NCBI GenBank assembly: GCA_030621225.1
Contig: JAUXIB010000001.1
Span: 1,253 to 65,252, forward strand
From: a candidate division FCPU426 bacterium
Lineage (GTDB): Bacteria > Oederibacteriota > JAUXIB01
Reading direction: 5' to 3'
Length of the DNA stretch: 64,000 bases
In this document: piece after piece, positions 8,491 to 38,986 of the stretch
How positions within the stretch are numbered: the first letter of the stretch is position 1
Layout: each line of letters opens with the position of its first letter
Notes under the pieces: model-generated
Told to the model about the DNA's origin: nothing
The model's database searches: none
Seen by the model: only the letters and a program-made list of their open reading frames with translations
Program-made: the position numbers and the translations under genes

Positions 8491-8548
8491 CTTAGCATAT
8501 GTGATAGAATCCCAGAAGATTGAAAAAGATATTAAGGAGATATTTAAT

Positions 8549-9265: not shown

Positions 9266-9280
9266 GCCTGAAAAAGTATA

Positions 9281-9315: not shown

Positions 9316-9356
9316 ACCATAAAAGAACGAGATACGAACTACGAGTAACGCGGTCA

Positions 9357-9812: not shown

Positions 9813-9854
9813 CTTTTTTCTCCTTGAGTTAAATGGTTATCTGTTCCTGGGGGA

Positions 9855-21790: not shown

Positions 21791-22375
21791 TTGGTGGATA
21801 AATCCATAGAATTATTAGTTAAGCAGGCCAAACAAGGCAATCCGGAAGCCTTTGAAAAGCTGGTAGTGCTCTACCGGCAGAGGATCTATCGTGTGGCTTT
21901 CCGCGTGGTGCGGGAGAAAGAAAGCGCGTTGGATGTGGCCCAGGAAGTTTTTATCAGAGTCCATGCTGAGTTAAAGAACTGCCGGGGAGAGGCGGCTTTT
22001 GAGGGGTGGCTCTATAGGTTGGTTACTAATCTTGCTATTGACCATTATCGTCGGGCCAGGAAGCGCCGCTGCCTGTCTCTTTTTAAGGACTTTGCGGGAA
22101 AGGAAAGCCCGGAGCGCGTTTTAGAGGCCGGCCGGGCGAACGAGCGGCTGGGCAGAGCCTTGGATAGCTTGACTGACCGCCAGCGGCAAATATTTGTGCT
22201 GAAGCATTATCAGGGATTGAGCATCGTCGAGATCGCCGGGGTGATCCGCGCGGCGGAGGGAACGGTGAAAGCTACGCTGCATCAAGCGGTTGGTAAGATG
22301 AGGAATTTTTTGCTGGATGAAGCTAAAAGGGACGCGGGACCCGGGACACGGGACTCGGGACCCGCAAAGGGTTGA
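21791..22375 (+). CDS. ECF sigma factor.
   Basis: Region 2 (GWLYRLVTNLAIDHYRRARKR) and region 4 (LSIVEIAGVIRAAEGTVKATLHQAVGKMR). The C-terminal tail is encoded by a CACGGGA-type repeat. Confidence 0.8.
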   Translation: MVDKSIELLVKQAKQGNPEAFEKLVVLYRQRIYRVAFRVVREKESALDVAQEVFIRVHAELKNCRGEAAFEGWLYRLVTNLAIDHYRRARKRRCLSLFKDFAGKESPERVLEAGRANERLGRALDSLTDRQRQIFVLKHYQGLSIVEIAGVIRAAEGTVKATLHQAVGKMRNFLLDEAKRDAGPGTRDSGPAKG

Positions 22376-22376
22376 C

Positions 22377-23399
22377 ATGGACTGCGACAAGGTAAAAGAA
22401 AGACTAGCACTCTACTTCTACGGCGAGAGTGGCGGTGAAACGCGAGCCATAAAGGCACATCTGAAAAAATGCCCGGTTTGTCGTAGTGAGTTTGCGGAGC
22501 TGAAGCAAGTCGGGAAGCTGGCGGACGGGATGGAGATACCGCCGGTGGGCGACGGGGAATGGGTCCGTTTTGCTGACAATGTGCGGCAGGGCATCGTTTC
22601 CCGCCCGCTACACGGGCGTTTTCTGCGTCCCCTTGTGCTTTGGCCTGCTCTGGCCGCGGCCGCGGCGGCGTTTATTTTGCATCTTCAGTTTACTCCCGCG
22701 GAGAAGATAAGCGGCGAGACCGTACCTGTTTGTGGTGATCAGCTGGCCCTTGCCGAAGATAGCTCGGCTGAAGAGTCGGCGGCGCGAGTGGGGGCCGCCG
22801 CGGAGTTTCAACTGAGCGAGCCAACGAAGAAGCAAGCGCCGCGGATAGAGCTTGCCGCGCAGGCGCCGGCTGCGATGGAAAAAGACGAGGAAACCGCTCA
22901 GGTTGTCCGGGAGCCAGAGTTCGCTTCTGGAGAAACGATCGATCAGCGACCGTTGGGGTTCGTTCGGCCGGGAGCGGCGCTGCCGGGACCAGCGGCAATG
23001 GACGCCGCCGGGACCACACAGCGTCCCGTCGCTGTCGCGAGCTGCAAAGATGGTAAGGGGGACGACGCAGGGGATATCCCCCGCCCGGAACCGACGGCAA
23101 GCGCTACGCCGTTGAGAGACAGGATAGTCTTGAAAAATAATAAGATAAACCCGTTATTGGGAGATAAGGCGACCATCGTTTACCGTTTGCCGGAAGGTGG
23201 CCGCGTACGTCTGGCGGTCTATAACAGCCTGGGGGAACTGATGCTTGTCCTCTATCAGGGAGAGAGGAATGCCGGGACGTTTGAAGAGTACTGGGAAGGC
23301 GCCAATCGGGCGGGTGCTGTGGTTAGCGCCGGCATCTATTTTGTTAGTATTGAAACGCCCTCCTATAACGAGCGGCGTAAGATAGTAGTGGTAAAGTAG
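22377..23399 (+). CDS. Anti-sigma factor with a zf-HC2 domain, one TM helix, an acidic Ala/Pro-rich linker, and a C-terminal T9SS-type (FlgD-Ig-like) sorting domain.
   Basis: HLKKCPVCRSEF motif and TM helix LVLWPALAAAAAAFILHL. The C-terminal ~85 aa (NNKINPLLGDKATIVYRL...VYNSLGEL...WEGANRAG..SAGIYFVSIET...KIVVVK) align with the C-termini of four neighbouring proteins. Confidence 0.65.
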   Translation: MDCDKVKERLALYFYGESGGETRAIKAHLKKCPVCRSEFAELKQVGKLADGMEIPPVGDGEWVRFADNVRQGIVSRPLHGRFLRPLVLWPALAAAAAAFILHLQFTPAEKISGETVPVCGDQLALAEDSSAEESAARVGAAAEFQLSEPTKKQAPRIELAAQAPAAMEKDEETAQVVREPEFASGETIDQRPLGFVRPGAALPGPAAMDAAGTTQRPVAVASCKDGKGDDAGDIPRPEPTASATPLRDRIVLKNNKINPLLGDKATIVYRLPEGGRVRLAVYNSLGELMLVLYQGERNAGTFEEYWEGANRAGAVVSAGIYFVSIETPSYNERRKIVVVK

Positions 23400-23412: not shown

Positions 23413-25746
23413 ATGCGTTTCTCAAGCAGAATACTTATTATCACCTGTTTCGTTCTGTTGCTGGTCGCCGGTAAAGCAGAAGCATATACCGTGGTATTTC
23501 CTGATCCTAACCTTGAGGTGGCGATAAGAAGTGCGATCGGGAAACCCGTGGGTGATATAGATAATACCGAGCTCATCGGTCTCACCACGCTAACTGCTTC
23601 TTATAGCGGTATCGCCGATCTGACCGGGTTAGAGGAATGCGTGGATCTTATATACATAAACTTCTGGGGTAATTCAATATCCGACATTAGCCCGTTGTCT
23701 GGTCTGAGCAACTTGCAGGGCCTTCTTTTTCGAGATAATTCCATTAGTGATATCAGCGCACTGTCTGGGTTGATCAACTTACAGACCATTGGGTTCAACT
23801 CTAATTCCATTAGTGATATCAGCGCGCTGTCGGGGTTGACCAACTTACAGACCATTAGGTTCTACTCTAATTCCATCAGCGATATCAGCGCGCTGTCGGG
23901 GTTGGTGAACCTGACCGATGTTTGGCTCGAATGGAATGCCATCAGCGATGTAACTGCTCTAGTGGCGAATTGCGACGCGGGGGGGCTCGGTGCAGGTGAC
24001 GCTGTGTATATCAGGAACAATCCCTTGAGTGCCCAGGCCGAAAACGTTGATATACCATATTTGCAGGGCAAGGGTGTCTTTGTACAGTACGGGGATTATA
24101 CGATGACTACAACGCTAACGCTTACAGCTGCTATTTCCACCACTCATACTCCCACACCGACAAGCAGCGTCACCTCGACAGTTACTCCCACAGCGACAGT
24201 CAGCGCTACCTCGACAATCAGCGCAACGGTGACCCCAACCCAGCAGGTGGTTGTTTTTCCTGATAGTGGCTTGCAAGCGGCTGTCAGGAGCGCCATTGGT
24301 AAGCCGGCGGGGGACATATACAAGACGGACCTGATCGGACTTACTCTTCTGGACGCGCACGGCTCGGGTATCAGCGATCTGACCGGGCTGGAGGAATGCT
24401 CTGATCTAGCCAGCCTTTTTCTTGCCGATAACAGCATCGTTGATCTTGCGCCGCTCTCTGGGCTGGGTAATCTTACCTATCTGGAACTGTCCTCGAATTC
24501 CATTAGCGATCTTAGCCCGCTGGCCGGGTTGACGGGCCTGGGTAACCTGTTGCTGGACAGCAATTCTATTAGTGGGCTCGGACCGTTGAGCGGTTTGACC
24601 TCGTTGACCAACCTAACCTTGAGTGGTAACTCGATTAGTGACGCTACGGCCCTGGGTTCTCTTACGACCTTGAAAGGTCTGAATCTGAATAATAATTTAT
24701 TGGCAAACCTCGCGGCGCTTTCCGCGCTTACAGTGTTGACCAGTCTTTCACTGGATGACAACTCTGTAAGTAATGTAAGTCCGCTTGCTGCGCTGACGGA
24801 GTTAACCAGTCTGGGGCTGAATGCTAATTCCCTAGCGGATATTTCCGCTTTGTCCGGGCTGATCAAGCTGACCCAGTTATATCTGCAGGAAAATTCTATA
24901 GTTGATATCAGTTCCTTGGCGGGGCTGCTCAAGTTAGATAATCTTTTGTTGAGGAATAATTCTATCAGTGAAGTGAGCTCGCTGGTGACGAACTGTGACG
25001 CGAGCGGTCTAGAGGGAGGCGACTGGGTGGATTTGCGGGGGAATCCCTTGGAGTCGCAGGCGTTGAATACGGATGTTCCCTATTTGCTAAGCAAGAGCAT
25101 CAACGTGATGTATGACCTTCCCCCGACGCCAACGCCAACGCCGACAGTGCGCTTGTCGGTAACGGTGCGGGCCTGTCCGGGGCAGGAAGATTATCTCCAG
25201 TTGCGCATGAGTTCTATTGACGCTTCATTCGTGGATTGTGATAGCGCTTACTTCCAAGTATATCTGCAAGCTTCTGCGGGGGTTCCGCTGAGCGTGAGCG
25301 CGGCAGCCGGTGACGGTAAAAGTTGTTGGGCGCGTTACTATCCTGAGCCTGGCTGGCGGGATATCGACGTTGTCTACGCTTATGCCAGGGACGACGAAGG
25401 TTCCTGGGGTGTGTCTAACGGAAGTTTCCAGCGGGAAATATGCTCGGAAGGCGGGGCAGTCATGCGCAACAACAAGATATATCCGCTTAAGAACGATCAG
25501 CCCGTGGTGGTGCAGTTTAACGCCAAGGGGCGATGCCGTGTTGCTGTCTATAACCAGGCCGGCGAGGTGGTGGCGGGCCTGCTGGGGGACGGCAGCGCCG
25601 CTATGATCTCGTTATCTGAGGGTACACACCAGGTTAGCTGGGGCGGGGAATCACGGATCGGGTCGTTGGTGTCAAGCGGCATATATACCATTGTGGTAGA
25701 GACCCCGGATTACGTGAAGAAGTTTAAGGTGGTTGTGATCAAGTAG
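23413..25746 (+). CDS. Secreted leucine-rich-repeat protein with two LRR modules, Thr/Ser/Pro linkers, a conserved pre-CTD domain and the CTD.
   Basis: Signal peptide, and 22-residue repeats of the form NSISDIS.LSGL.NL. It has a duplicated N-cap (VVFPD..L..A.RSAIGKP) and the C-terminal KFKVVVIK sorting domain. Confidence 0.7.
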   Translation: MRFSSRILIITCFVLLLVAGKAEAYTVVFPDPNLEVAIRSAIGKPVGDIDNTELIGLTTLTASYSGIADLTGLEECVDLIYINFWGNSISDISPLSGLSNLQGLLFRDNSISDISALSGLINLQTIGFNSNSISDISALSGLTNLQTIRFYSNSISDISALSGLVNLTDVWLEWNAISDVTALVANCDAGGLGAGDAVYIRNNPLSAQAENVDIPYLQGKGVFVQYGDYTMTTTLTLTAAISTTHTPTPTSSVTSTVTPTATVSATSTISATVTPTQQVVVFPDSGLQAAVRSAIGKPAGDIYKTDLIGLTLLDAHGSGISDLTGLEECSDLASLFLADNSIVDLAPLSGLGNLTYLELSSNSISDLSPLAGLTGLGNLLLDSNSISGLGPLSGLTSLTNLTLSGNSISDATALGSLTTLKGLNLNNNLLANLAALSALTVLTSLSLDDNSVSNVSPLAALTELTSLGLNANSLADISALSGLIKLTQLYLQENSIVDISSLAGLLKLDNLLLRNNSISEVSSLVTNCDASGLEGGDWVDLRGNPLESQALNTDVPYLLSKSINVMYDLPPTPTPTPTVRLSVTVRACPGQEDYLQLRMSSIDASFVDCDSAYFQVYLQASAGVPLSVSAAAGDGKSCWARYYPEPGWRDIDVVYAYARDDEGSWGVSNGSFQREICSEGGAVMRNNKIYPLKNDQPVVVQFNAKGRCRVAVYNQAGEVVAGLLGDGSAAMISLSEGTHQVSWGGESRIGSLVSSGIYTIVVETPDYVKKFKVVVIK

Positions 25747-26328: not shown

Positions 26329-28608
26329 GTGAGAATTTTTGTTCTGACAACGATTTTTTTGTTATTTCCAGTGTTAACAGGCTGGGCAATCCCGGTTTAT
26401 AACGGTGACACCCTCACCGATGATGACTGGCCGATGTTTGGCGGAAATATCCATCATACAGGGGTCGGCAAGGACCTGCCCAACTTTAAGAGTATGCAGC
26501 TCTGCGGTCAGAGATCGTTGGGGGGAGGATGGATAAAAAGCCAGCCGATAGCTGTGGCGGGAAGACTTTACGCTAATACGGAAGGGGGCTACACATACAG
26601 CTTGAATATCCATGATCTGAGCGCTCCGCCCTACTGGGTCAAAAACGTGGGCGGGGGTGTTTTTACCTCTCCTTTGTATTACAAGGGTAATGTTTATATT
26701 TTGGATCGTAATTCTCAGTTGTCGGCGTTTGACATTGACGGTAACTTGCTATGGACTTATACGGGTACCGCCAGTTATTATGCCAATCAGAACTCTCCCA
26801 TCGCTGCTAATGGCGTCATTTATTTCGGTGATATGATGGGAATAGTTTATGCGATAAATACGGATGGCACCCTCCGCTGGGGTAGGGCGCTGTATGATCG
26901 CGTACATACTGAAGCGGTCTATGATGTTGAGCGGGAACGTATTTACATCGGAGCTTCCAGCGGCAAGATTTATGTTCTGGATGCAGGGGACAACCCCGCT
27001 ACCTGGGGCAAGGTGGTTGGGATGGATGATATAGGAGGAGACATGCTTTATGGGGGCCTGTCTTTTTACAAGGGTGCTACATCGGCGGATGATAAGGTGA
27101 TCAGCGGCGGGGAGGACGGTCATGTGCATTCCTTTCGGGCGGAGCCCTTTGCTTTTTTGGATTCGTACGCTACTGGCGGTACCATTACTGCCGCCCCGGC
27201 TATCAAGGACGGTAGGGTTTATGTGGCCTCAAATTCGCATCGTGTCTATGGGCTTGACCTGTTAGCTGACGGTAGCTTTGCTGATGTATGTTATTCATTG
27301 AGCAATAATAATTATCCCAAACAGAGCCCCTGTATTATAGTAGCCTGTGAAATTATTGCTTCCGGTTGCCATGGGGACAGGGTTATTATGCGGTGTACGG
27401 ACTGTGAAACAGTGTGGTATGAGGATACTACCGCGGATACATGGGGGGGCTTGATATCGCACGAGGGGAAGATCGCGGTGACCGGCAAGAACGTGATCTT
27501 CACTTATTGCCCGGTGCTCGATATCCCTACGCTTACAGCAAGTATGACCTCTACTGTTACGCCCAGCGTGACTCCGACCGCCAGTCCCACTGCTACTATT
27601 AGCGCCAGTATTACCGCCAGTGTCACCCCCAGCATGACACCCAGTGCTACCCCTACCTTTACCTCCACTGTAACTTCTACTGCCACTGTTACCATAACCG
27701 CTACTGCTACCGTAACCGTCACCGGTACCTGGACAGAGACCGGCACGGTTACCAAGACCAGTACCGACACACTGGTGTTTACTCCCACTAATACTCTTAC
27801 TGTGACCGGTACTAACACTTTTACTTTGACCTGTACTGATAGTGTTACGCTTACCGATACGCCTACGGCAAGTCCGAGCCATACTTCTGTTGCTACGTTT
27901 ACCGACACGCCTACGGCAAGTTCGAGTCATACGCCCAGTGCTACGCGGACGGTTACTCCGACAGCTACTCTCACTGGCACCATGACTCCTTCTTCTACCG
28001 CAACTTTTACTATTACCTGTGAGGTGGAACCACCACAGCTATCGGTAAAGGTGGTCTTTGACCCGGAGCGCTCGGATGATCTGATGCTGATCATGAAGTC
28101 CTCCGAGCCGGTGGATTGCTCCCAAAGCTATTTCGAAGCCTATCCGCATTCGTATCCACGGGATAAGCGGGAGTGCCGTGAGGTCACCCAGGTGGACGAG
28201 ACCACCTGCCAGTGCTACCTGCCGCGCGAGGTGGGATTCGGTGATCTCGCTAAAGTCTACGCTTATGCCGTTGATCACTGCGGCAACCAGGGGGTCTCTG
28301 ACGGGGAGTTTGAGCTGGAGGTGATCCCGGATTCGGGAGTGGTGATAACCAGCAACAAGATCCGTCCGGGAAGCTGCGCCGGGATAATCTACCAGCTGGA
28401 GGACGCGACGCGGGTGGAGATAAAGATCTACAATCTGGCCGGGGAACTGATAAAGGTGATCCAGAACGGCAATCAGCCGGCGGGACGTTACCAGGAAGAA
28501 TGGTGCGGAGGTAACCAGGCAAATGAATTTGTGGCCAGCGGTATTTATGTCGTATATATACGCACGGATTTCTACGAGGTGACGGAGAAGATAGTGGTGC
28601 TGAAATAG
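26329..28608 (+). CDS. Secreted PQQ-repeat beta-propeller protein with a ~170-aa Thr/Ser-rich linker, a Cys-containing conserved domain and the CTD.
   Basis: GTG start with signal peptide. The N-terminus has the DDDWPMFGGNIHHTG motif and repeated Y.G.....YALD propeller blades. The TS-rich region spans 27.53-28.02 kb, and the gene ends KIVVLK. Confidence 0.7.
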   Translation: MRIFVLTTIFLLFPVLTGWAIPVYNGDTLTDDDWPMFGGNIHHTGVGKDLPNFKSMQLCGQRSLGGGWIKSQPIAVAGRLYANTEGGYTYSLNIHDLSAPPYWVKNVGGGVFTSPLYYKGNVYILDRNSQLSAFDIDGNLLWTYTGTASYYANQNSPIAANGVIYFGDMMGIVYAINTDGTLRWGRALYDRVHTEAVYDVERERIYIGASSGKIYVLDAGDNPATWGKVVGMDDIGGDMLYGGLSFYKGATSADDKVISGGEDGHVHSFRAEPFAFLDSYATGGTITAAPAIKDGRVYVASNSHRVYGLDLLADGSFADVCYSLSNNNYPKQSPCIIVACEIIASGCHGDRVIMRCTDCETVWYEDTTADTWGGLISHEGKIAVTGKNVIFTYCPVLDIPTLTASMTSTVTPSVTPTASPTATISASITASVTPSMTPSATPTFTSTVTSTATVTITATATVTVTGTWTETGTVTKTSTDTLVFTPTNTLTVTGTNTFTLTCTDSVTLTDTPTASPSHTSVATFTDTPTASSSHTPSATRTVTPTATLTGTMTPSSTATFTITCEVEPPQLSVKVVFDPERSDDLMLIMKSSEPVDCSQSYFEAYPHSYPRDKRECREVTQVDETTCQCYLPREVGFGDLAKVYAYAVDHCGNQGVSDGEFELEVIPDSGVVITSNKIRPGSCAGIIYQLEDATRVEIKIYNLAGELIKVIQNGNQPAGRYQEEWCGGNQANEFVASGIYVVYIRTDFYEVTEKIVVLK

Positions 28609-28753: not shown

Positions 28754-29209
28754 ATGAAAGTCAAGCGGAACGGCAGAGCACTGGTTTCTATATTGATGTT
28801 TAATTTTTTTCTGCTTAGTGCAGCCCATGCATATGAGCCGGCCGAAGCGGAAAAGGTCCACTATGCCCGCGTCAATGGGCAGGTTAACGCTTTCTTGGCG
28901 AAAGAACTGGGGGTGCCTCTTGCCGCTATAAAGCAAGCCCGTGATAGAGATTATCCCTTTAGTTATGCTTTTTTCTTTGCGGTGGTAGTAAGCCAGGGGA
29001 AGGGCAAAGCAAAGATGAAGGACGTTCTGGATATGCACGACGAGGGAGTGACTTGGGGTGAAATTTGTATCGAGTTCGGTCTGGATTTGCGGGTGCTGAG
29101 CGAGGAGATGAAGCGAGTTTTTAGAAAAATGATTGACTCCGGTCTGGACGTTCCGCCCCAGACTTATAAGGAAAGAAAAAAGTTATTTGAGATTGGGCCA
29201 AAAAAATAG
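28754..29209 (+). CDS. Small secreted protein; paralog of the gene at 25885.
   Basis: 151 aa with a signal peptide and the same conserved motifs. Confidence 0.5.
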   Translation: MKVKRNGRALVSILMFNFFLLSAAHAYEPAEAEKVHYARVNGQVNAFLAKELGVPLAAIKQARDRDYPFSYAFFFAVVVSQGKGKAKMKDVLDMHDEGVTWGEICIEFGLDLRVLSEEMKRVFRKMIDSGLDVPPQTYKERKKLFEIGPKK

Positions 29210-29288
29210 GAAAGACTGTTTTACTCATAGTCTGCACCCGGTAACACGGTGCATACGGGCTAGACTAACCAAATTACGGATCACGACG

Positions 29289-31376
29289 ATGACTCGAAAA
29301 CTTGACATATTTCGCGCTCCCCTTAGTATATTCTTTCTAGGGATTTTCTTCTTGATCCCATCGGCGATCGGTATACCACCCGAGCTTTACAACGGCGATG
29401 ATACTCTTACTGATGATGATTGGCCGATGTATATGGGCAACATCCACCACACCGGCGCGCCATTGGTTGATGATCCCTGTTTTTGTGAGTTGCAGTGGTG
29501 TGACATTATAGAACACATGGGTGAGATGTGGTCCGAGCCGATTGCGGTAGATGGACGGATCTATGTTGCGACTGCGAGCGGGGAACTGGTGGCCGCAGAC
29601 CTGGATACCTTGCAGGTGCTTTGGCGGAGGTCTACTGTTTATCAGGTTTTTTCCTCTCCGGTTTATTACAAGGGAAAGATATATGTTGTGAATAGTCGTA
29701 GTCAGTTAATGGCCTGGGATACTGATGGCAATCCGGAGCCGTGGGTGTATATTCCTGCCACTTCCTATGGGAGTTGGAGTTGTCCGATGGTGGTGGATGA
29801 TGTCATCTATTATGGTGACCCGTGGGGAAAAAGGGTGTATGCCGTAAACTTGGATGGCAGTGAGAAGTGGAGGAACCATTTTAGCGGCGGAATCTCGAAT
29901 GCCCTTGTTTACGATAGGGCGAGAAGCCGTCTCTACGTTGCGACCGGCAATGGCTATGTCTACGGGGTGGATGTGACCGACAACGGGAAGGTCATCTGGG
30001 TGACAAAAACAGACGGGGGGATCCTAGGCCTTTCTTTTTATAATGATGCTATCCTGGCTTTCAGTGGATTAACTGTTTACTCCTTAGACGCCGCGAATAA
30101 CGGTGCCATAAATGATTCCTATTTTTTAGACAGCGTAATGGGAGCGCCCGGGGCGGTGAAGAACGGTATGGTCTATCTCACTCCTAATTGGAGAATTGCA
30201 GGTTTCCCGATCTTTGGCGACGGTACCTTTGGGGTAGGTTGGGCGGTTTGGTCAGACAACAACCACCCCACGCATACTCCGCCACTTGTGGTTTGTTGTA
30301 AGGTTATCACCAACGGTTGTCATGGGTGGGTAGAGATAGTAGAATGCGAGTCTTCGGTTATGTCAGTGGCCGGGCGCACCTCTGATAGCCGGGCATCGTC
30401 AATAGCTTATAAAGGAAAGATATATATGCCCGGCTCTACGGAAATAAATGTATTTTGCCCGGTAGCGTGCACGGCTACTTGTACGGTGAGCCCGACCATT
30501 ACCGTAACGCTGACTGCCAGTCCAACGCCCAGTGTAACGCTGACTGCGACCCCTACACCTACGCCCAGTTCCAGTCTGACGGCCAGTCCTACTCCGAGTA
30601 GTAGTTCGACGCCCAGTGTGACCGCTACTGCCAGTTTCACGCCCAGCATGACCCCCAGCGTTACCCCGACCATTACCTTTACCACGACCCCTACCTGCAG
30701 TCAGACCAGGACGGATACCCCGGTCTGTAGCGATACGCCGACAGCTACTGTTACTCCTACTTACACGGTAACGCCGACCATCACCTGCGAATCCGCGCCG
30801 CCGCAATTGTCGGTGAAGGTGGTCTTTGACCCGGAGCGCTCGGACGACCTGATGCTGATCATGAAGTCTTCCAAGCCGATAGACTGCTCCCAGAGCTATT
30901 TCGAAGCCTACCCGCATTCGTATCCACGGGACAAGCGGGAGTGCCGTGAGGTCACCCAGGTGGACGAGACCACCTGCCAGTGCTACCTGCCGCGCGAGGT
31001 GGGGTTTGGTGACATCGCCAAAGTCTTCGCTTATGCCGTTGATCACTGCGGCAATCAGGGGGTCTCTGACGGGGAGTTCGAGCGGGAGGTGATCCCAGAT
31101 TCAGGCGTGGTAATAACTAACAACAAGATCCGATTGGGAAGCTGCGCCGGGATAATCTACCACCTAGAGGACGCGACGCGGGTGGAGATAAAGATCTACA
31201 ACTTGGCCGGGGAGCTGATAAAGGTGATCCAGGACGGCAACCAGCCGGCGGGACGTTACCAGGAAGAATGGTGCGGGGATAACCAGACGAATGAATTTGT
31301 GGCCAGCGGTATTTATGTCGTATATGTACGCACGGATTTCTACGAGGTGACGGAGAAGATAGTGGTGCTGAAATAG
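29289..31376 (+). CDS. Second secreted PQQ-repeat beta-propeller-CTD protein; paralog of the gene at 26329.
   Basis: Internal ATG at 29289 gives signal peptide MTRKLDIFRAPLSIFFLGIFFLIPSAIG. The last ~190 aa are more than 90% identical to the paralog at the nucleotide level. Confidence 0.7.
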   Translation: MTRKLDIFRAPLSIFFLGIFFLIPSAIGIPPELYNGDDTLTDDDWPMYMGNIHHTGAPLVDDPCFCELQWCDIIEHMGEMWSEPIAVDGRIYVATASGELVAADLDTLQVLWRRSTVYQVFSSPVYYKGKIYVVNSRSQLMAWDTDGNPEPWVYIPATSYGSWSCPMVVDDVIYYGDPWGKRVYAVNLDGSEKWRNHFSGGISNALVYDRARSRLYVATGNGYVYGVDVTDNGKVIWVTKTDGGILGLSFYNDAILAFSGLTVYSLDAANNGAINDSYFLDSVMGAPGAVKNGMVYLTPNWRIAGFPIFGDGTFGVGWAVWSDNNHPTHTPPLVVCCKVITNGCHGWVEIVECESSVMSVAGRTSDSRASSIAYKGKIYMPGSTEINVFCPVACTATCTVSPTITVTLTASPTPSVTLTATPTPTPSSSLTASPTPSSSSTPSVTATASFTPSMTPSVTPTITFTTTPTCSQTRTDTPVCSDTPTATVTPTYTVTPTITCESAPPQLSVKVVFDPERSDDLMLIMKSSKPIDCSQSYFEAYPHSYPRDKRECREVTQVDETTCQCYLPREVGFGDIAKVFAYAVDHCGNQGVSDGEFEREVIPDSGVVITNNKIRLGSCAGIIYHLEDATRVEIKIYNLAGELIKVIQDGNQPAGRYQEEWCGDNQTNEFVASGIYVVYVRTDFYEVTEKIVVLK

Positions 31377-31640
31377 CTCGAAGGAATTCTGAATTCTGAG
31401 TTATGAATTATGAAAACGGTGGTCAGTGGTCAGTGGTCGGTGGATGGTGGTCAGTGAGCAGCTTGCCCAGAGCGTACTAACGCGAATGGTACAGGGATAC
31501 TAGATACGAGATACTAGCATCAAGTCTCGAGTTCTGGAAAAGAGTAACCAAGAGGTAAAAAACATCACAGTAGGGGCGTCCCTCTGCGGGCGCCCCTCGC
31601 CCAAAGGGCGAGTAGAGCCAAAAACCAAAGCGTCTCGATA

Positions 31641-31666
31641 AAAGCCGACATTATTGTCGGTTTTTT
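31641..31666 (+). terminator. Rho-independent terminator.
   Basis: CCGACA-TTAT-TGTCGG stem followed by T6. Confidence 0.55.
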
Positions 31667-31728: not shown

Positions 31729-34104
31729 TTGCGTTATTTTCTGATCACTCTTTTGTTTGCTTCCTTGCTAATCGCACGCCTGGGTGCGATCGGCGGCAGT
31801 GGAGCCAACTTTCTGCGTCTGGAGCAGGGGGCCAGGCCTTTAGGTATGGGCGGCGCCTTTGTCGGTCTGGCCGACGATGCTGACGCTGTATACTGGAATC
31901 CGGCCGGTCTTTCCCGTCTGCGCTATCCCCAACTTACGTTCACCCATTATCAGGGCATTGCCGACCTGACGAGCGAATTTTTCAGCCTGGCTATCCCCAC
32001 TGAGAAGTGGGGCGGGTTCGGTTTAAATATCCTCTATAGCAGCGTAGAAGACCTAAAGCATTATAATAGCTTTGGCGTGGAAGTGGGTGAAATAGAAAAT
32101 TATGACCTGGCCCTGGAGACTTCCTGGGGCGACCGCTTTCACCCTCTCTTTAGTGCCGGGGCGGGCATGAAGTATTACTTTAGCCGCCTGGAAGAAGTAC
32201 ATGCTTGGGGCTATGCCATGGATTTTGGCCTGATCCATTACTTGCCCTGGTCCGGGGCTACTTTTGGTATGGCCTTGCGCAACCTCGGCCCGGGGATATG
32301 TTACCTGGCGGCCGCCGATCCGCTGCCCTTGAATCTTAAGTTGGGTCCTGCGGTCAAACGTCACCTGAGAGGGAGACACTGGTTGACGCTCTCCATGGAA
32401 ATGGATCGCATCCTGCTCTCGGGGGAAAACAGCTATATTCAAGCCGGGTTTGAATATGCCTACGGACGTATTTGTTTTCTGCGTGGCGGCTATCGTTTTG
32501 GCAGGGATAACGATTATTATTCTCTGGGCATGGGCTGTGGTCTCAAACCTGTATGGGTGGATTACGTTTATATTCCTTACGGGCCGATCGGTATGACCCA
32601 CCGTGTCTCACTGACCCTGGGCTGGCCGAAAGGGAAAAAGGAACTGCCGCGTATCTTTCGCAAGCGGACTGCCCGTCCGGTGGCCTATTTGACCGGGGAA
32701 GAGCGGATGGTATTGCCGCGGCAGTCCATTCAACTAAAGGCGGAAGTCATCAGTCTTGCTGAGGTTATAGATTGGCAGTTGAGCTTGGAGGACTGGCGGG
32801 GGAAAGTGGTGCGCGAATTTACGGGGCAGGGCGTCCCGCCCGCGGCGATCCTCTGGTATGGTAAGAATATAAACGGTCAATTGGTCGTCTCCGGTCGTTA
32901 TACCGGCAAGTTTTCCGTGCGGGACAGGAACGGCAGAAGGGGGACGGCACAACGGGATTATCATTTGTTGGAGGTAGAAGAGGTGGTAATGCGCTTGCCG
33001 GCCGCTGTGCTCTTTGATTCAGGGCACATTGAGCTTCGGGCGGCGGGAAAGGCGAGGCTGCGGGAGATTTATCAGGAGATAACGGGCAAATATCCCGGTT
33101 GTCGCCTGCGTGTGGAGGGGCATTCTGATAATGTTCCGCTTCGCCCGGGAGGGCCGGCGCGGGATAACCAGGAGCTTTCCGAGCGGCGTGCCGGCAGTGT
33201 GGGGGAAGTGTTGCGAGAATTCGGATTTCCCGCCGCGCGCTTGGGCATAGTCGGCTTTGGTTCCTTGCGGCCTATTGCGACTAATGACAACGACGCGGAT
33301 AGGGCCAGGAACAGGCGGGTGGAGCTTGTGGTGGAAAAGAGTGCGGCGGTAACCAAGTTGCCGCCGATTATAGGGAGTGATCTGACCCTTGATGGCAAAG
33401 GCAGCCCTTACTTGGTTGACGGGGACGTACTGGTACAGGCGGGAGCTACCCTGACCGTTGAAGCGGGAGTGGTAATTAAATTTGCATCAGGTTCGTACGG
33501 CGAAGCGACGGCTTCCTCTACTGTTTCAAGCGATCTTATCGTTTTGGGCGGTTTGCGTGCTGTGGGCGAGGCGGGAAGGCCGGTCGTTTTTATTGGCAGC
33601 GAGGGAGGGGCGTGGGGGGCGATTTTCTTCGGCCGTGGCGCGGGCGAAGACTGCCTGCTGGAGCATTGCCGTCTGGAGCGGGGGAAGATAGTTTGCAATT
33701 ACGCTTCGCCGGGCATCAGGAGATGTGTTATCAGAGAGGGTGGCGGTATTGAAGTGGGGCATAAGGCGGCGCCGATTATTGAAGGCAATCTGTTGGAGAA
33801 AAACAGCAGCGGTATTCTCTGCTGGTTTGACAGCTCGCGCCTTTCTTTGCGCTACAATACTATCAGCGGTAACAAGTATGGTCTGGTCCTGCGCGGCATC
33901 GGCGAGGCGGCCGTAGAAAACAACAACATCTGCGCTAACCAGATAGACCTGGCAAACATGACAACGCAGAATGTCAGGCTAGCCAATAATTGGTGGGGTT
34001 CTACCGATGTGTTTGAGATAAAGCGTAATGTTCACGACGGAGAAGATGACGCGGGCAAGGGGCTGGTCATCGTGGAGCCGGTATTGCAAGAGGCGGTCAG
34101 ATGA
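31729..34104 (+). CDS. Fusion protein: PorV/PorQ-like (FadL-like) outer-membrane beta-barrel, then an OmpA-family peptidoglycan-binding domain, then a right-handed beta-helix.
   Basis: TTG start after a GAGGGGGAG ribosome-binding site. The N-terminus LRLEQGARPLGMGGAFVGLADDADAVYWNPAGLS matches the signature of PorV-family barrels. The central region RLRVEGHSDNVPL...ELSERRAGSV...NRRVELVV is OmpA-like. The C-terminus has NosD-like parallel beta-helix repeats. Confidence 0.55.
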   Translation: MRYFLITLLFASLLIARLGAIGGSGANFLRLEQGARPLGMGGAFVGLADDADAVYWNPAGLSRLRYPQLTFTHYQGIADLTSEFFSLAIPTEKWGGFGLNILYSSVEDLKHYNSFGVEVGEIENYDLALETSWGDRFHPLFSAGAGMKYYFSRLEEVHAWGYAMDFGLIHYLPWSGATFGMALRNLGPGICYLAAADPLPLNLKLGPAVKRHLRGRHWLTLSMEMDRILLSGENSYIQAGFEYAYGRICFLRGGYRFGRDNDYYSLGMGCGLKPVWVDYVYIPYGPIGMTHRVSLTLGWPKGKKELPRIFRKRTARPVAYLTGEERMVLPRQSIQLKAEVISLAEVIDWQLSLEDWRGKVVREFTGQGVPPAAILWYGKNINGQLVVSGRYTGKFSVRDRNGRRGTAQRDYHLLEVEEVVMRLPAAVLFDSGHIELRAAGKARLREIYQEITGKYPGCRLRVEGHSDNVPLRPGGPARDNQELSERRAGSVGEVLREFGFPAARLGIVGFGSLRPIATNDNDADRARNRRVELVVEKSAAVTKLPPIIGSDLTLDGKGSPYLVDGDVLVQAGATLTVEAGVVIKFASGSYGEATASSTVSSDLIVLGGLRAVGEAGRPVVFIGSEGGAWGAIFFGRGAGEDCLLEHCRLERGKIVCNYASPGIRRCVIREGGGIEVGHKAAPIIEGNLLEKNSSGILCWFDSSRLSLRYNTISGNKYGLVLRGIGEAAVENNNICANQIDLANMTTQNVRLANNWWGSTDVFEIKRNVHDGEDDAGKGLVIVEPVLQEAVR

Positions 34105-34163
34105 TATTTTAACTGGCAGTAGTGGCGTCCTTCCACGGGCGCCACCAGCCAAAGGCTGGTCAA

Positions 34164-34949
34164 ATGTCGAAAGCTGGCTATAAGAAAATAGCGATGTTAC
34201 TGGCTGGAGTGGTGATGTTGTGGACTTCGGTCGCTTGTGCAGAGGACTACCTGCGTGCGGCCGGTACTCTGTATAAAAACGGTGAACTGGCTGATGCTGC
34301 CGTTTATCTGGAGGCGGCGTTGAAGAAGCAGCCGAACTGCCAGGATTGCTGGCAGTTACTGGGGTACTGCCATTATAACCTGGGGGAGTTTGCCAAGGCT
34401 TTGCAGGCCTACCGGAAGATGTTGGAGCTTTCTCCGGGGCGGGATGACGTGAGGCGGCTAATCCAAGAAATAGAGCAGGAGATCAAGAGCGCGGAGAAGG
34501 ACAAAAGCAACCGGCGGGAAACAGTGCGGAGAAGACGTAGCGGTTGGGGGGCGATATTGGGTGTGCCCAGCGGTGTGACTTTTGCCAGGAGGTTACAGGA
34601 CATGTACATAGTGACGCTGATGTTGGGGTCACGGTTTGATAACCAGATAGCCTTGAGCGCTGATATGTTCGCGCGCTTTTCGCTGGAGGAGAGTGGCGTC
34701 ACCTATATCAGTTTTGGCCTGGGTTGGTGCACGATGGCCGGCGGCAGCGAGACGGTGGGAATCACTGAAACCGGTAAGATCTTAAAGGTGGCGCGGCAGA
34801 CGCGCGCCGGGCCGAATATTCCCCTGGCCGTGTCGTATTTTTTTGGCGGCACGGAGTTCTTTTTACAGGGGAGCGCTATGATCGAGATTACTCCTGAGTA
34901 TAAATTGGTGCCGGGCGGCGGCCTGGGGGTGCGGTGGTATATTGAATAA
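34164..34949 (+). CDS. TPR-repeat protein with a C-terminal beta-rich segment.
   Basis: Signal or TM helix AMLLAGVVMLWTSVACA and TPR helices (AAVYLEAALKKQPNCQDCWQLLGYCHYNLGEFAKALQAY). Confidence 0.45.
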   Translation: MSKAGYKKIAMLLAGVVMLWTSVACAEDYLRAAGTLYKNGELADAAVYLEAALKKQPNCQDCWQLLGYCHYNLGEFAKALQAYRKMLELSPGRDDVRRLIQEIEQEIKSAEKDKSNRRETVRRRRSGWGAILGVPSGVTFARRLQDMYIVTLMLGSRFDNQIALSADMFARFSLEESGVTYISFGLGWCTMAGGSETVGITETGKILKVARQTRAGPNIPLAVSYFFGGTEFFLQGSAMIEITPEYKLVPGGGLGVRWYIE

Positions 34950-35228: not shown

Positions 35229-37523
35229 ATGAATCTGAAGAAAATCACACTGGTCGCTTGCCTGGTGATGGCGGTTGTCTTGATGCCGGCATTGGCCCAG
35301 AACATACCGCAAACAATGAACTACCAGGGGCAATTATTAGATCCCGGCACTAAACAGCCCAAACCGGACGGGGCGTATAATTTTGAATTCCGCATATACG
35401 ACTCCATTCCTGCGCAGGTCTGGAGCGAAATCCAGAACGGGGTCCCGGTGAACGGGGGGCTTTTTAATGTAACGCTTGGTGAATTTACGCTGATCAATCT
35501 TTCTTTCAACGATCAATATGAGCTGGAGATATGGGTGGGGGGCGAAAAGTTGAGTCCCCGTATTAAGCTGAACAGCGTTGGCTATGCTTTTCAGGCAGAA
35601 GAGGTGGATGGTTTTAGTGCATCGACTATAGCAGCGGCCGATCGGATCCTGGCCTTGAATTCGAACACCGCTTTTGTCATCACCGCCGTCAATGGCCTCG
35701 GTCCGCTGATCGAAGCGAACAACGACGCCGGCGCAGGTAGTGCCATCCGGGGAACGAACCAATCGGGTACCGGCATTGAGGCGGTTAGCGACGTCAGGGA
35801 TGCCTTTGCTTTGCATGCGCGAAATACCGGAGGAACGGGTAGCGGTGATATGATCGGTGTTTACGGTGAGGGCGGAGTCGGTGTGGCCGGCAGGAGCACG
35901 GAAATGTGGGGCGTTGGCATCGGCGGCAAGGTCGAAGCAGTCGGTAATTCCGGGGTGGCGGTGATCGGTTTAAATATAGGCGGTGGGGACAGAGCTACGG
36001 GAATGACGGGAATCTTGGACAATAAGGACGCGGCGGTTACCGCGTATGGTGTTTTAGGGTCGACCAACACCCTTGAAGGAGCAGGGGTTTTCGGCGTAGC
36101 TGATAACCCTAATACCAAAGGGGTATCGGGCATTAATGTAAAAGGCGCGGGTATATCGGCTTTTGGTATGCCGGCTATTGAGGCTACGTCCACCACACGC
36201 AGTGCCCGTGCGATCATGGCCGCAAATACGGGAGAGCATGGCGCGGGGAGCGTGGTGGCTATTGAGGGTAACGCGGCTACCCCCGGCAATGAAGGTATCG
36301 GTGTGCAGGGCGTGGGGCAGTATGGCATTGTAGGCGCTTCGACGAATACCGTGACTAACGGCATAGGTGTTTACGGCGAGAATACTACTGCCGCTAATAC
36401 CGCCGCCGGCGTCTATGGGTTAAACAGCAACGGCGATAGCACTCCTAGTGTGATAACCGCGGGTGTGAGCGGCAGCAACCAGCAGAACGCCGGTGTGGAC
36501 GCGGTCGGCGTTTATGGTTTTACGCAGAGCCGCGGTGCTGCCGGTGTTATGGGAGAAAATTTAGCTGTGCTGGGCGCGGGTGATCCGGTGGGCGTGCGCG
36601 GCATTGTGCGTGACAGTAAGGGTGTTGGTGTGGAAGGTTTGGTGGATGATGTGACTCCGGGCGGTACGCAGATAGGTGTGCGCGGCTGGAGTAACTCGTC
36701 CGATGGTACGGGAGTGAAGGGCATGGCTGAAAAATATGCGGTTCATGGAATAACCGGCACCGCTGGGGGCTACGGAATCTTTGCTGAAAACACCGCCAAT
36801 GCCGGCGGGCCTGTAGCGTTACGCGCGGAGGCAACGGCGGGGATATCAGGTACGGGCGTACAGGGTGAGTCCTTTGACTTTGGCGTGTACGGCATCGCCC
36901 GGGCTTCCGGGGGCGCGGGAGTGTTCGGGCAGAACACAGATAACGCCGCCGTCGGCAATCAGGTTGGGGTGAGGGGAGATGCGTCCGCTCTCAAGGGTAT
37001 CGGCGTCGTCGGAGAGAACTGGGACATGACCCCGGGCGGCGCCCAGGTGGGAGTGAAGGGCACGGTCAACTCGTCTGATGGCATCGGCGTGCACGGAGAG
37101 AACGTTATCGCCGCCGGCGGCAGCACTGCCATCGGCGTGCTGGGCGAGGCGTTGGACGCGGGAGCGGTCGGCACCTGGGGACGCGGCGGCCTGGGCGGCA
37201 CGGGTGTGACTGCCGAGAATATGGATGCCTCGGGCGCGAGCGAGGCCCTGCGTGTGGTCAACGGTACGGTTGTCGTGTCGTCCCCCATTCTCGGTCGCCG
37301 GCAGTGGACCGCGGGGATGAATGAGGCGGTGGATCTGGGTCCGGGGGTCAACGTCCTCAAACCAGAGAGTATGATAATCGTCACTATTGAGGGCAATTTA
37401 TTGATTAATTTCGGTACCGTGACGACTACATACGGCACGCCTAATAGTTTTATGATACACACTAGTGTTAATCCGGTGCCTGTAAATACTTGGTATTCGT
37501 TTTTGATAATAAATCCATACTAG
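35229..37523 (+). CDS. Secreted glycine-rich repeat protein of about 764 aa.
   Basis: AGGAGG ribosome-binding site and signal peptide. It has dozens of G-[VI]-x-G-type repeats (GVYGENTTAANTAAGVYG, GIGVQGVGQYGIVG...). It has no CTD. Confidence 0.55.
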   Translation: MNLKKITLVACLVMAVVLMPALAQNIPQTMNYQGQLLDPGTKQPKPDGAYNFEFRIYDSIPAQVWSEIQNGVPVNGGLFNVTLGEFTLINLSFNDQYELEIWVGGEKLSPRIKLNSVGYAFQAEEVDGFSASTIAAADRILALNSNTAFVITAVNGLGPLIEANNDAGAGSAIRGTNQSGTGIEAVSDVRDAFALHARNTGGTGSGDMIGVYGEGGVGVAGRSTEMWGVGIGGKVEAVGNSGVAVIGLNIGGGDRATGMTGILDNKDAAVTAYGVLGSTNTLEGAGVFGVADNPNTKGVSGINVKGAGISAFGMPAIEATSTTRSARAIMAANTGEHGAGSVVAIEGNAATPGNEGIGVQGVGQYGIVGASTNTVTNGIGVYGENTTAANTAAGVYGLNSNGDSTPSVITAGVSGSNQQNAGVDAVGVYGFTQSRGAAGVMGENLAVLGAGDPVGVRGIVRDSKGVGVEGLVDDVTPGGTQIGVRGWSNSSDGTGVKGMAEKYAVHGITGTAGGYGIFAENTANAGGPVALRAEATAGISGTGVQGESFDFGVYGIARASGGAGVFGQNTDNAAVGNQVGVRGDASALKGIGVVGENWDMTPGGAQVGVKGTVNSSDGIGVHGENVIAAGGSTAIGVLGEALDAGAVGTWGRGGLGGTGVTAENMDASGASEALRVVNGTVVVSSPILGRRQWTAGMNEAVDLGPGVNVLKPESMIIVTIEGNLLINFGTVTTTYGTPNSFMIHTSVNPVPVNTWYSFLIINPY

Positions 37524-37732: not shown

Positions 37733-38986
37733 ATGATGCAGAGGACGCTATACGCTATACGCTATACGCTGTACGCGATCAACAGCGCGTTGTTGATCGC
37801 CGCATTGCTCAATATGCCGCTTTACGCCGCTCCGGTAGCTGTGAGCTCGGCCAACTATGAGATCGACTGGGACGTGGTCGACGCGGGCGGCGCGGCGCGC
37901 AGTTCGGCGACTTACTACGTTAACGACTCGCTGGGTCAGGCGGCAAGCAGCTTTGTCGGCTCAGTCAGCTATGATCACAGCATCGGCTTTCAACGGATGG
38001 CTTCGCCGACGATGACTGCCACACCGACCGCTACCGTAACGCGTACTGTTTCTGTTACCTATACGCCTACTGCTACGCCTACCGCTACCGAGAGTGCTAG
38101 TCATACACCGAGTTACAGCCCCACTTCTACCTCTACCGCTACATCGACCAGCACACCTAGTTGGACGGCTACTGATACTGAAACCAGTACTCCTACTGCC
38201 ACCTTTAGCTGGACGGAGACGGATACGCCTACAGCTACACCGAGCCGGACGGAGACAGCGACTCCCTCGGCCAGCCCCAGCCTGACCATGACGGCCACGC
38301 TGACCCGAACCCGGTCGATTACGCGTACGACCACGGAGACGTATACCCTGAGTTCCAGTCCTACTTCTACGCGGACGGCTACCAGGACGGTTACGCGCAG
38401 CGTTACTCGGACAATGACGCGCACTTCTACCGGGACGGCAAGCAAGACCTATAGTCCTACCCGCACTTGGACGAGCACGGCGACGCCTACTTTCACGCCG
38501 AAACCCACCCGCAGCGTCACCCTTACAGTAACCAGGTCAGCTACACATACGCACAGTGTTACGGTTTCGGCGACGCCAACCTGGACGCCTACGCTCACCC
38601 GGAGCGCGACTTATACGATCAGTTCCACTTACACGTCCAGCTCCACCGTTACGCCTACCTTTACCATAACGCCTACTTTCACACGTACGCCGACTTGGTA
38701 TCTGCCCGCTTTCCTGGACAAGAATCATTTTAATCCTGCCGCGGGCGAGGAATTGCTGATACGCGGTCTTGCCGCGCGGGCTGGGCACTTGACGGTGGAT
38801 GTTTACTCGATAAACGGCGAGCGGATCGGCCGGGTGTTGGAGCGGCAAGTGAAACTGAAAGAACCATATCGTACCAGTTGGAGCGGGCGTAACGCTACCA
38901 AGGATTTTGTGGGCAACGGCGTATACATGGTGTTGATCAAGTGCGGCGATTGGCAGGAGATCAAGAAGGTGATTGTGTTGAAGTGA
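37733..38986 (+). CDS. Secreted protein made almost entirely of a Thr/Ser/Pro/Ala-rich linker plus the CTD.
   Basis: N-terminal hydrophobic segment, about 250 aa of TPTATxT repeats, and the C-terminal NPAAGEELLIRGL...VYSINGERIG...WSGRN...GNGVYMVLIK...KVIVLK. Confidence 0.55.
   Translation: MMQRTLYAIRYTLYAINSALLIAALLNMPLYAAPVAVSSANYEIDWDVVDAGGAARSSATYYVNDSLGQAASSFVGSVSYDHSIGFQRMASPTMTATPTATVTRTVSVTYTPTATPTATESASHTPSYSPTSTSTATSTSTPSWTATDTETSTPTATFSWTETDTPTATPSRTETATPSASPSLTMTATLTRTRSITRTTTETYTLSSSPTSTRTATRTVTRSVTRTMTRTSTGTASKTYSPTRTWTSTATPTFTPKPTRSVTLTVTRSATHTHSVTVSATPTWTPTLTRSATYTISSTYTSSSTVTPTFTITPTFTRTPTWYLPAFLDKNHFNPAAGEELLIRGLAARAGHLTVDVYSINGERIGRVLERQVKLKEPYRTSWSGRNATKDFVGNGVYMVLIKCGDWQEIKKVIVLK

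Follow-up and report, generated by a model that had tools for sequence, protein, structure and literature searches.

Introduction

What might an outer-membrane barrel of the PorV type do when the same polypeptide also carries a domain for gripping the cell wall? The question is raised by the gene at positions 31729 to 34104 of a 64-kb stretch of bacterial DNA (the window, whose numbering is used throughout), the product of which we refer to as the 31729 protein. We consider it slightly better than an even bet (a probability of about 0.5) that this protein, static and tethered to the wall, receives or anchors proteins with a type-A-like C-terminal sorting domain (CTD), and that its first partner is the propeller protein encoded upstream of it.

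Several known systems provide a frame for this reading. PorV of the T9SS (type IX secretion system) is a mobile carrier, pulled from the translocon together with its substrate (PMC10994853), whereas PorQ anchors PorZ, and PorV anchors PorU, permanently at the cell surface (PMC5562754). PorE links the peptidoglycan with PorP, a barrel that holds a CTD protein, and the PorP-PorE pair has been proposed to serve non-mobile cargo (PMC9143113). In Myxococcus, the OmpA domain of TraB restrains the diffusion of the surface receptor TraA (PMC12045341). By analogy, the most economical reading of the 31729 protein would be a single chain that unites the roles divided between two proteins in PorP-PorE, PorQ-PorZ or TraB-TraA.

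The barrel belongs to the PorV/PorQ family

The 31729 protein consists of four modules: a barrel, a FlgD_ig-like beta-sandwich, an OmpA_C domain and a right-handed beta-helix. A preliminary description of the locus had listed a barrel, an OmpA domain and a beta-helix, the sandwich between the first two being absent from its list, and had placed the N-terminal part in the PorV/PorQ/UPF0164 type. Placement in the PorV/PorQ family (NCBIfam NF033709; Pfam PF19572/PF03687) is borne out by both family scores and fold. The PorV_fam model NF033709 matches residues 25-297 at 161.7 bits (cutoff 90), spanning model positions 3-324 of 326, and Pfam UPF0164 scores 24.3 bits (cutoff 21.4). In the AlphaFold2 model of the whole protein, made from a 47-sequence alignment with a mean predicted local distance difference test score (pLDDT) of 80, a short-helix N-terminal segment (residues 27-63) is followed by 14 strands within residues 68-298, and the pLDDT exceeds 90 over residues 30-300. 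A Foldseek search of the PDB with this model returned Flavobacterium johnsoniae PorV first (8gl6_F, E 3.3e-14; 6h3i_F, E 9.4e-13; template modelling score normalised to the target, TM-target, 0.66-0.67), followed by FadL and TbuX (E ~1e-8, TM ~0.5), and a family profile searched against the PDB found PorV 6h3i_F at E 4.9e-38. The hatch-type segment at the N-terminus of the barrel (residues 25-63) carries the YWNPAGL motif; the longer motif GARPLGMGGAFVGLADDADAVYWNPAGLS, residues 34-62, retains most of the family-invariant residues (R36, G39, G41, D49/D50 and W56-L61), and the barrel ends in SLTLGW.

These features also bear on a quite different explanation, in which the protein takes up hydrophobic molecules as a channel of the FadL type and is only incidentally tethered to the wall. 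Barrels of the PorV/UPF0164 kind are FadL-like and share the NPA-containing hatch motif, Toluene_X (PF03349) falls on residues 40-70, and FadL and TbuX are among the fold matches. The Toluene_X match, however, reaches only 11.4 bits against a cutoff of 29.7, compared with 161.7 bits for PorV_fam, and lies on the hatch motif alone, which is likewise all that true FadL homologues match (4-20% of the query). The TM-target is 0.5 for FadL against 0.66 for PorV, and the neighbouring genes encode secreted CTD proteins rather than lipid or aromatic catabolism. Identification as a FadL transporter was rejected on the sub-cutoff Toluene_X score and the weaker fold matches, and an uptake role is hardly to be expected. 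The preliminary description had named two findings that would speak against its view, a region not predicted as a barrel and FadL proteins as the best homologues; instead, the N-terminal region is modelled as a 14-stranded beta-barrel, and FadL ranks behind PorV in fold and hidden Markov model (HMM) scores alike.

A predicted wall anchor behind the barrel

The claim that an OmpA-like, peptidoglycan-anchoring module is fused to this barrel was equally well founded. Pfam OmpA (PF00691) matches residues 428-529 at 61.2 bits (cutoff 27.2), and Foldseek aligns the domain with YfiB, MotB, OprF and AbOmpA (E ~1e-8 to 1e-9). Within it the segment GHSDN...DNQELSERRA, alignable to OprF and YfiB, contains an intact triad of D467, N480 and R487. 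In the crystal structure of PorE the side chains of Asp576, Asn584 and Arg591 hydrogen-bond to the bound stem peptide (PMC7192894); D467, N480 and R487 are the counterparts of these residues, which contact the diaminopimelate of the stem peptide. Peptidoglycan binding by the predicted OmpA_C domain is thus well supported by its sequence.

Between barrel and anchor lies the FlgD_ig-like sandwich, which scores 14.6 bits in the 31729 protein and 26.7 bits in a homologue from FCPU426 (locus L003), and has a conserved motif, W..L.I...G..VR.F.G...P..L.WYGK. Everything from residue 299 to residue 791 (Ig-like module, OmpA domain and beta-helix) would be periplasmic rather than surface-exposed, because 14 strands, an even number, put both barrel termini in the periplasm, because OmpA_C must reach the wall, and because there is no further membrane-spanning segment after the barrel. 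The periplasmic part of the protein would then amount to ~490 residues, wall anchor included.

Barrel genes keep company with CTD genes

To which partner might such a barrel be dedicated? A custom HMM was built from eight CTDs and used to scan all 85 loci, an upstream CTD gene being counted where a CTD-ending ORF (open reading frame) lay on the same strand within 600 nucleotides. Such an ORF precedes the barrel gene in nine of ten non-redundant OmpA-fused loci, or ten of 11 with L087 included (the window, L001, L003, L005, L009, L053, L067, L083, L084/85 and L087). The frequency expected by chance from background density is ~0.007 per locus (binomial p ~3e-19 for 9/10), and the upstream gene is usually the sole CTD gene in ~20 kb. 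Barrels with other extensions have a CTD-ending ORF upstream in 16 of 19 cases and stand-alone barrels in 15 of 55; the ~1,300-residue protein upstream of stand-alone barrels in genomes of the Fibrobacteres-Chlorobi-Bacteroidetes (FCB) group is probably PorU.

Five of the positive loci (L005, L009, L053, L067 and L087) are independent of the HMM seeds, and precomputed Pfam Por_Secre_tail matches independently back the pairing in L083, L084, L085 and L087. The upstream gene in L083, L084 and L085 encodes an FN3 protein of 1,078-1,166 residues with a Por_Secre_tail match, and in L003 the gene for a 1,163-residue protein ending VFPNPYNP...GIYYYVV abuts the barrel gene. In L001, the contig of protein P0002, the upstream gene is an orthologue of the window's 29133-31376 gene, with the same Pro/Thr linker, pre-CTD domain and CTD; between these two loci the cargo family is kept at 40% barrel identity. 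The preliminary description had proposed a cell-wall-tethered docking or processing station for CTD proteins. Tethered docking gains support from this conserved adjacency of barrel and CTD genes; processing does not.

The pairing is also what speaks most directly to the possibility of a generic tether between outer membrane and wall, comparable to OmpA, OprF or Pal, in which the 14-stranded barrel is an anchor with no specific relation to CTDs. The succession of a barrel and a periplasmic OmpA_C domain, in which the same peptidoglycan-binding residues are intact, mirrors OmpA and OprF, there are no T9SS core genes nearby, and UPF0164/FadL-like barrels of Treponema pallidum also have periplasmic extensions (PMC8407342). 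Such a tether is nevertheless unlikely, as it leaves unexplained both the CTD gene in the adjacent upstream slot at ten of 11 loci and the membership in the sole barrel family known to bind CTDs. The barrels of OmpA and OprF are 8-stranded and of an unrelated family, without Ig-like or beta-helix modules and without CTD-gene pairing. The T. pallidum proteins TP0548, TP0859 and TP0865 resemble the 31729 protein in joining a UPF0164/FadL-superfamily barrel to a presumptively periplasmic C-terminal extension (PMC8407342), yet their extensions are alpha-helical and lack OmpA_C or a beta-helix, they are proposed nutrient importers, and no CTD partners are known for them.

A model for a tethered CTD receptor

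Taken together, these comparisons enabled us to propose a model for the 31729 protein. The signal peptide would carry it across the inner membrane, and residues 25-298 would, on the HMM and model evidence, form a 14-stranded PorV/PorQ-type barrel in the outer membrane. The chain would then re-enter the periplasm, where a basic linker of ~44 residues could let OmpA_C reach the peptidoglycan and bind the diaminopimelate stem peptide through D467, N480 and R487. Binding to the wall would immobilise the barrel, which, because it is anchored, is not expected to act as a diffusing shuttle in the way of canonical PorV, which leaves the translocon with its substrate. Family membership and gene pairing suggest that the barrel instead holds the retained CTD of its partner, so that the partner would be presented on the outside of the cell at a fixed place; the analogues for such holding are PorQ with PorZ, PorV with PorU, and PorP-PorE with type B CTD proteins. 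The Ig-like module and the beta-helix would be periplasmic accessory scaffolds that may bind glycan, peptidoglycan or a partner protein, their place being taken in sister proteins by a tetratricopeptide repeat (TPR) module or by nothing.

Several observations weigh against this model. Five positive loci supplied the seeds of the CTD HMM, and to that extent the pairing count is circular; the OmpA-fused locus L031 and the barrel plus beta-helix variant P0335 (L089) have no upstream CTD gene. The barrel falls below the cutoffs of the T9SS equivalog models (PorV NF033710, 52.5 bits against 250; PorQ NF033711, 79.8 against 220; PorV2 NF052325, 50.7 against 325), among which PorQ outscores PorV, and it is ~100 residues shorter than F. 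johnsoniae PorV, such that it may be without the long CTD-binding loops. Domain scans found no T9SS core genes (SprA/Sov, PorK/L/M/N, PorU) in the 64-kb window, nor were any found within 10 kb of the relatives. Co-transcription of the cargo and barrel genes is not assured, because a terminator-like hairpin and a 352-nucleotide gap lie between them. Finally, CTD-like domains are not always export signals in this lineage, since the anti-sigma factor described below carries one that must stay periplasmic.

In the view derived from the Bacteroidota, PorV is a mobile shuttle, and it is another protein, PorE, that is credited with anchoring the secretion machinery to the wall; here a PorV/PorQ-type barrel and a wall anchor are fused and encoded beside one cognate CTD protein, and in several candidate phyla. 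If the receptor model is correct, holding a partner by its CTD would be what PorV/PorQ-type barrels did ancestrally or do in general, with shuttling as a specialisation. The fusion would likewise be natural evidence, of the "Rosetta stone" kind, for triads of barrel, anchor and cargo such as PorP-PorE-PG1035, and CTD-dependent surface display outside the phyla credited with type IX secretion would become testable.

Gene neighbourhood

The features of the 31729 gene and of its neighbours are collected in Table 1. The gene starts with TTG, and a ribosome-binding site, GAGGGGGAG, lies 6 nucleotides 5' of the start.

Table 1. Features of the 31729 gene and its neighbourhood (window coordinates).
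Feature	Position	Strand	Basis
ECF (extracytoplasmic function) sigma factor	21791-22375	+	Pfam Sigma70_r2/r4
Anti-sigma factor whose periplasmic end is a CTD	22317-23399	+	zf-HC2, FlgD_ig; TIGR04183 22.9 bits; CTD HMM 121.8 bits
Leucine-rich-repeat protein with terminal CTD	23413..25746	+	Pfam LRR_4, FlgD_ig; CTD HMM 105.6 bits
Paralogous propeller cargo with CTD	26329..28608	+	BLASTP, Pfam, CTD HMM 130.8 bits
Upstream putative cognate cargo: PQQ/BamB-like propeller, Pro/Thr linker, pre-CTD domain, type-A-like CTD (31098-31373)	29133..31376	+	Pfam PQQ_2 and FlgD_ig, TIGR04183 20.6 bits, custom CTD HMM 129.8 bits
Terminator-like hairpin with T-run	31640..31665	+	Pattern scan; in the 352-nt cargo-barrel spacer
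Whole gene, 791 aa: PorV/PorQ-family barrel, Ig-like, OmpA_C, beta-helix	31729..34104	+	ORF list, identical public protein P0001, domain scans
Signal peptide, residues 1-20 (MRYFLITLLFASLLIARLGA), Sec-type, without lipobox cysteine	31729..31788	+	Sequence reading; helix 2-15 in model
14-stranded PorV/PorQ-family (FadL-like) outer-membrane barrel, residues 25-298	31801..32622	+	PorV_fam HMM, model, Foldseek, profile against PDB
Basic disordered linker, residues 299-342	32623..32754	+	pLDDT <50 for 303-342; length and sequence vary among homologues
FlgD_ig-like beta-sandwich, residues 343-424, in longer family members only	32755..33000	+	Model strands, FlgD_ig scores, conserved motif
OmpA_C-like peptidoglycan-binding domain (predicted), residues 425-536	33001..33336	+	Pfam, OprF/YfiB alignment, fold matches
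Contact triad D467, N480, R487	33127-33129, 33166-33168, 33187-33189	+	Invariant in family alignment A1
Right-handed beta-helix cassette, residues 541-757, and C-terminal cap motif, residues 754-786	33349..34101	+	Beta_helix/NosD matches, models
TPR protein, 17 nt after barrel gene	34122..34949	+	Pfam TPR_2, TPR_16
Pro/Thr/Ser-rich low-complexity protein, 417 aa, ends KKVIVLK	37733..38986	+	CTD HMM 42.8 bits at C-terminus

All five CTD genes of the window lie within 22.3-39.0 kb, around the barrel gene. Their CTDs are C-terminal, ~90 residues long and end in lysine, in the pattern K(I/V)VV(V/L/I)K, in agreement with type A CTDs, whose C-terminal lysine is near-invariant (PMC10994853). When tested against the type A models (TIGR04183/PF18962), the neighbours scored 22.9, 21.0 and 20.6 bits with TIGR04183, below its cutoff of 23, while FlgD_ig gave 33.0 and 31.7 bits, above its cutoff of 27, and 25.5 and 23.3 bits, below it. 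The protein encoded at 37733..38986 has no Pfam or NCBIfam match.

The putative cargo gene at 29133..31376, whose true start is likely the ATG at 29289, and the gene at 26329 are tandem paralogues, 49% identical overall by BLASTP, with ~40% identity in the propeller and ~95% over the last ~195 residues. Such near-identical ends would fit gene conversion, a shared partner for the C-terminal module or strong constraint on that module. Identification of the upstream cargo as PorU or PorZ was rejected; it has only PQQ/BamB-like propeller matches, and neither Peptidase_C25 nor Reg_prop.

The anti-sigma factor has an N-terminal zf-HC2 domain, one transmembrane helix, a long Ala/Pro-rich linker and a CTD ending RKIVVVK. 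As this protein is anchored in the inner membrane, its CTD is not that of a secreted cargo; this CTD may serve as a decoy or sensor of the CTD receptor, by which transcription would be linked to the secretion load.

A periplasmic CTD of this kind implies a CTD-binding site that can be reached from the periplasm, and so lends some credit to a further explanation, a stand-alone two-partner display system in which the barrel assists the upstream CTD protein in its passage through, or insertion into, the outer membrane and holds it thereafter, the periplasmic modules capturing the CTD before export. The one-to-one gene pairing resembles two-partner logic, the closest PorV plus OmpA relatives bear the labels FCPU426 (Goldbacteria), Desantisbacteria, Firestonebacteria and WOR-3, a grouping of FCPU426 with Firestonebacteria and Elusimicrobia has been reported (PMC7031533), and reviews report T9SS genes to be absent outside the FCB phyla (PMC11285876). 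Against this, a 14-stranded and presumably hatch-plugged barrel of ~275 residues is too narrow for folded propellers, and genomes of candidate phyla may hold unrecognised T9SS genes, so that we regard this explanation as decidedly doubtful. The same low standing attaches to a more far-reaching and speculative proposal, that a PorV-family barrel and its upstream CTD protein form, one to one, a self-sufficient surface-display module in lineages that lack SprA outside the FCB group (Goldbacteria/FCPU426, Desantisbacteria, Firestonebacteria, Elusimicrobia and the window's lineage). In the wall-anchored form of this module the Ig-like/beta-helix arm would capture the CTD before export, and the CTD-tailed anti-sigma factor of the ECF type would read the same site, giving feedback between cargo load and transcription.

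Downstream of the barrel gene, the last ~130 residues of the TPR protein are Gly- and aromatic-rich, beta-like, and resemble a small beta-barrel. This gene may be a split version of the TPR that is fused after OmpA in P0004 and L003; its candidacy as a conserved separate partner was rejected, since L001 and L087 lack it.

The rest of the window is housekeeping in character (Rho, BacA, ComEC, XseA, RF, ParAB, PcrA, radical SAM enzymes and an IS1595 element). For PcrA, two relatives stand at 72-74%, and the next, drawn from mixed phyla, at 47% or less. At 35229-37523 there is a 764-residue, Gly-rich, repetitive secreted protein without a Pfam match or CTD, which has a sub-threshold match (33 bits, cutoff 60) to the N-terminal domain of the Bdellovibrio mosaic adhesive trimer fibre protein. 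An IS1595-family transposase (DDE_Tnp_IS1595 with a zinc ribbon) lies beside a P63C-domain protein on the minus strand at 16245-18052; the GC skew there runs opposite to that of the remaining window, as would be seen with a mobile insertion. The ORF at 2687-3442 encodes a small protein in which CarboxypepD_reg, also a PorE module, precedes an N-terminal prodomain of the fervidolysin type; the ORF has no peptidase domain.

A proposed accessory role for the beta-helix

What does the C-terminal beta-helix add? The preliminary description had called it a pectate-lyase-like passenger domain. Pfam Beta_helix (PF13229, 33.4 bits, cutoff 25.9) and NosD (PF05048, 31 bits, cutoff 23.6) match residues 645-756, and the region modelled alone forms ~27 short strands (pLDDT 77; predicted template modelling score, pTM, 0.79), with a conserved cap motif, NWWG...I...DG.D..G.G.VI.EP.L. 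Searched against the PDB, the model of the beta-helix gave no match at E <= 1e-3, pectate lyase A coming closest (1jta; E 0.033, TM 0.39), and the domain scans gave no lyase or hydrolase HMM match. Gly, Asn, Pro and Trp account for most of the invariant positions.

Its distribution is equally informative. A word-indexed homologue search with the beta-helix alone returned nothing, the query itself included, and an exhaustive phmmer search of 1.84 billion representatives was used instead; this located the ~240-residue cassette in 6,332 proteins, 87 of them at E <= 1e-30. It occurs singly in proteins of ~350 residues, in up to 22 copies in giant proteins, in tandem in proteins with a terminal FlgD_ig CTD (P0242, P0252), and ahead of a small outer-membrane barrel in P0262. 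Because the invariant residues are mostly of the fold-building sort, and because the cassette is repeated up to 22 times, the beta-helix is best regarded as a promiscuous structural or binding cassette; nothing supports catalysis.

These data bear directly on a role as a periplasmic processing or enzyme station, in which barrel and OmpA domain would keep at the outer membrane a beta-helix with glycan lyase, hydrolase or epimerase activity, directed at peptidoglycan, at polysaccharide in transit or at cargo. The above-threshold Beta_helix and NosD scores, the frequency with which right-handed beta-helices are carbohydrate-active, and the nature of the best, if weak, fold matches (pectate lyases, PL6 lyases and AlgG) would be in keeping with such a station. 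However, none of those matches is significant and no lyase or hydrolase HMM matches, the invariant residues are typical of a structural ladder, repetition in giant proteins and occurrence in CTD cargo are the pattern of a structural or binding module, and sister proteins do with a TPR or with nothing in its place. We consider an enzymatic station very improbable, and identity as a pectate lyase or other enzyme was rejected for want of any significant sequence or structural match. Neither "pectate-lyase-like" nor "processing" therefore survives from the preliminary description, and "passenger" fails as well, given that the barrel topology and OmpA_C would place the beta-helix in the periplasm. 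In annotation it should be called neither a passenger nor an enzyme.

Known barrel-anchor systems

In Bacteroidota the porU and porV genes are adjacent, a layout like that of the CTD gene and the 31729 barrel gene. The 31729 protein shares with PorV and PorQ of the T9SS an above-cutoff family HMM score, a 14-stranded FadL-like barrel, the YWNPAGL hatch motif and a CTD-gene neighbour. It differs from them in scoring below the equivalog cutoffs and in its shorter barrel (by ~100 residues relative to F. johnsoniae PorV), in a partner that, unlike PorU, is not a C25 peptidase and cannot be recognised as PorZ either, and in coming from an organism that is not recognisably a member of the Bacteroidota. 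Its ~490 periplasmic residues and wall anchor are, moreover, incompatible with the mobile-shuttle role of PorV (PMC10994853).

With PorP-PorE (the SprF/PorE-like arrangement) the likeness would be one of functional logic, a barrel holding a CTD protein while OmpA_C ties the barrel to the peptidoglycan. The gene order of cargo, barrel and anchor is the same, and PorE-type modules (OmpA_C, TPR and CarboxypepD_reg) are fused to barrels in sister proteins. Here, however, barrel and anchor are one polypeptide; the barrel is of the PorV/PorQ rather than the PorP_SprF family, with no PF11751 match at E <= 1; and the CTDs of the window are type-A-like (FlgD_ig/TIGR04183) and not type B. From the PorE set of TPR, beta-propeller, CRD and OmpA_C the 31729 protein has OmpA_C only, with a beta-helix instead of the others.

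The traB gene is encoded beside traA. TraB, which comprises a barrel, TSP3 and an OmpA domain, resembles the 31729 protein in its signal peptide, N-terminal barrel, linker module and C-terminal OmpA domain, but its barrel is of another family and the TraB model NF033763 matches only the OmpA part of the 31729 protein (44.6 bits, cutoff 700). TraA, furthermore, uses MYXO-CTERM sorting and not a CTD, and TraB has no beta-helix.

Related proteins

An identical 791-residue protein, P0001, is present in the public collection, from an NCBI contig of 65.6 kb, and the protein also occurs in the Logan assembly of SRR14923484. The full four-module architecture is known in four clusters, P0001, P0002 and P0003 (38-40% identity) and P0250. 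For P0250 (L087) the gene as called in the database lacks its N-terminus, and the stop-to-stop ORF 7641-10301 holds the signal peptide and hatch motif. Simpler barrel plus OmpA proteins of ~490 residues are labelled Desantisbacteria, FCPU426, WOR-3 and Firestonebacteria. A TPR follows OmpA in P0004 and L003 (L003:9977-12121), CarboxypepD_reg is added in P0022 and P0049, and many other PorV-family barrels carry TPR, FN3 or Reg_prop extensions instead, several of the extended barrels being already named "PorV/PorQ family protein" by NCBI. The fusion had been described as atypical; this applies to the exact architecture, which is rare, but not to the general design, as uncultivated phyla commonly have PorV barrels extended by OmpA, TPR, FN3 or Reg_prop. 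No account of a PorV/PorQ-OmpA fusion came up in the literature searches, and a metagenome scan with the full protein returned a single, unrelated OmpA fragment.

Several variants deserve mention in their own right. In P0335 (L089:8001-9839), whose neighbours are Amt and P-II, a PorV-family barrel is joined directly to the beta-helix cassette, without Ig-like module or OmpA domain; there is thus more than one way in which the cassette has been combined with PorV barrels. Eight proteins of ~840-1,020 residues (P0021, P0027, P0029, P0031, P0041, P0045, P0047 and P0051) combine a PorV barrel with Reg_prop (PF07494) propeller repeats. Two-component sensors of the BT4663 type carry Reg_prop propellers. 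BT4663, itself a two-component sensor, is the nearest homologue of PorZ (PMC5562754), and from their domain make-up the eight proteins might be PorQ-PorZ-like fusions.

Finally, L087 may have a second PorV-family gene ~6 kb upstream: the gene call L087:1-1554 shows faint TPR matches in Pfam, and the barrel HMM matches the ORF at 1-1551 with 113 bits. The downstream genes of this locus encode an NHL-repeat protein, two PMT_2 plus PA14 glycosyltransferases and a Glyco_transf_9 protein.

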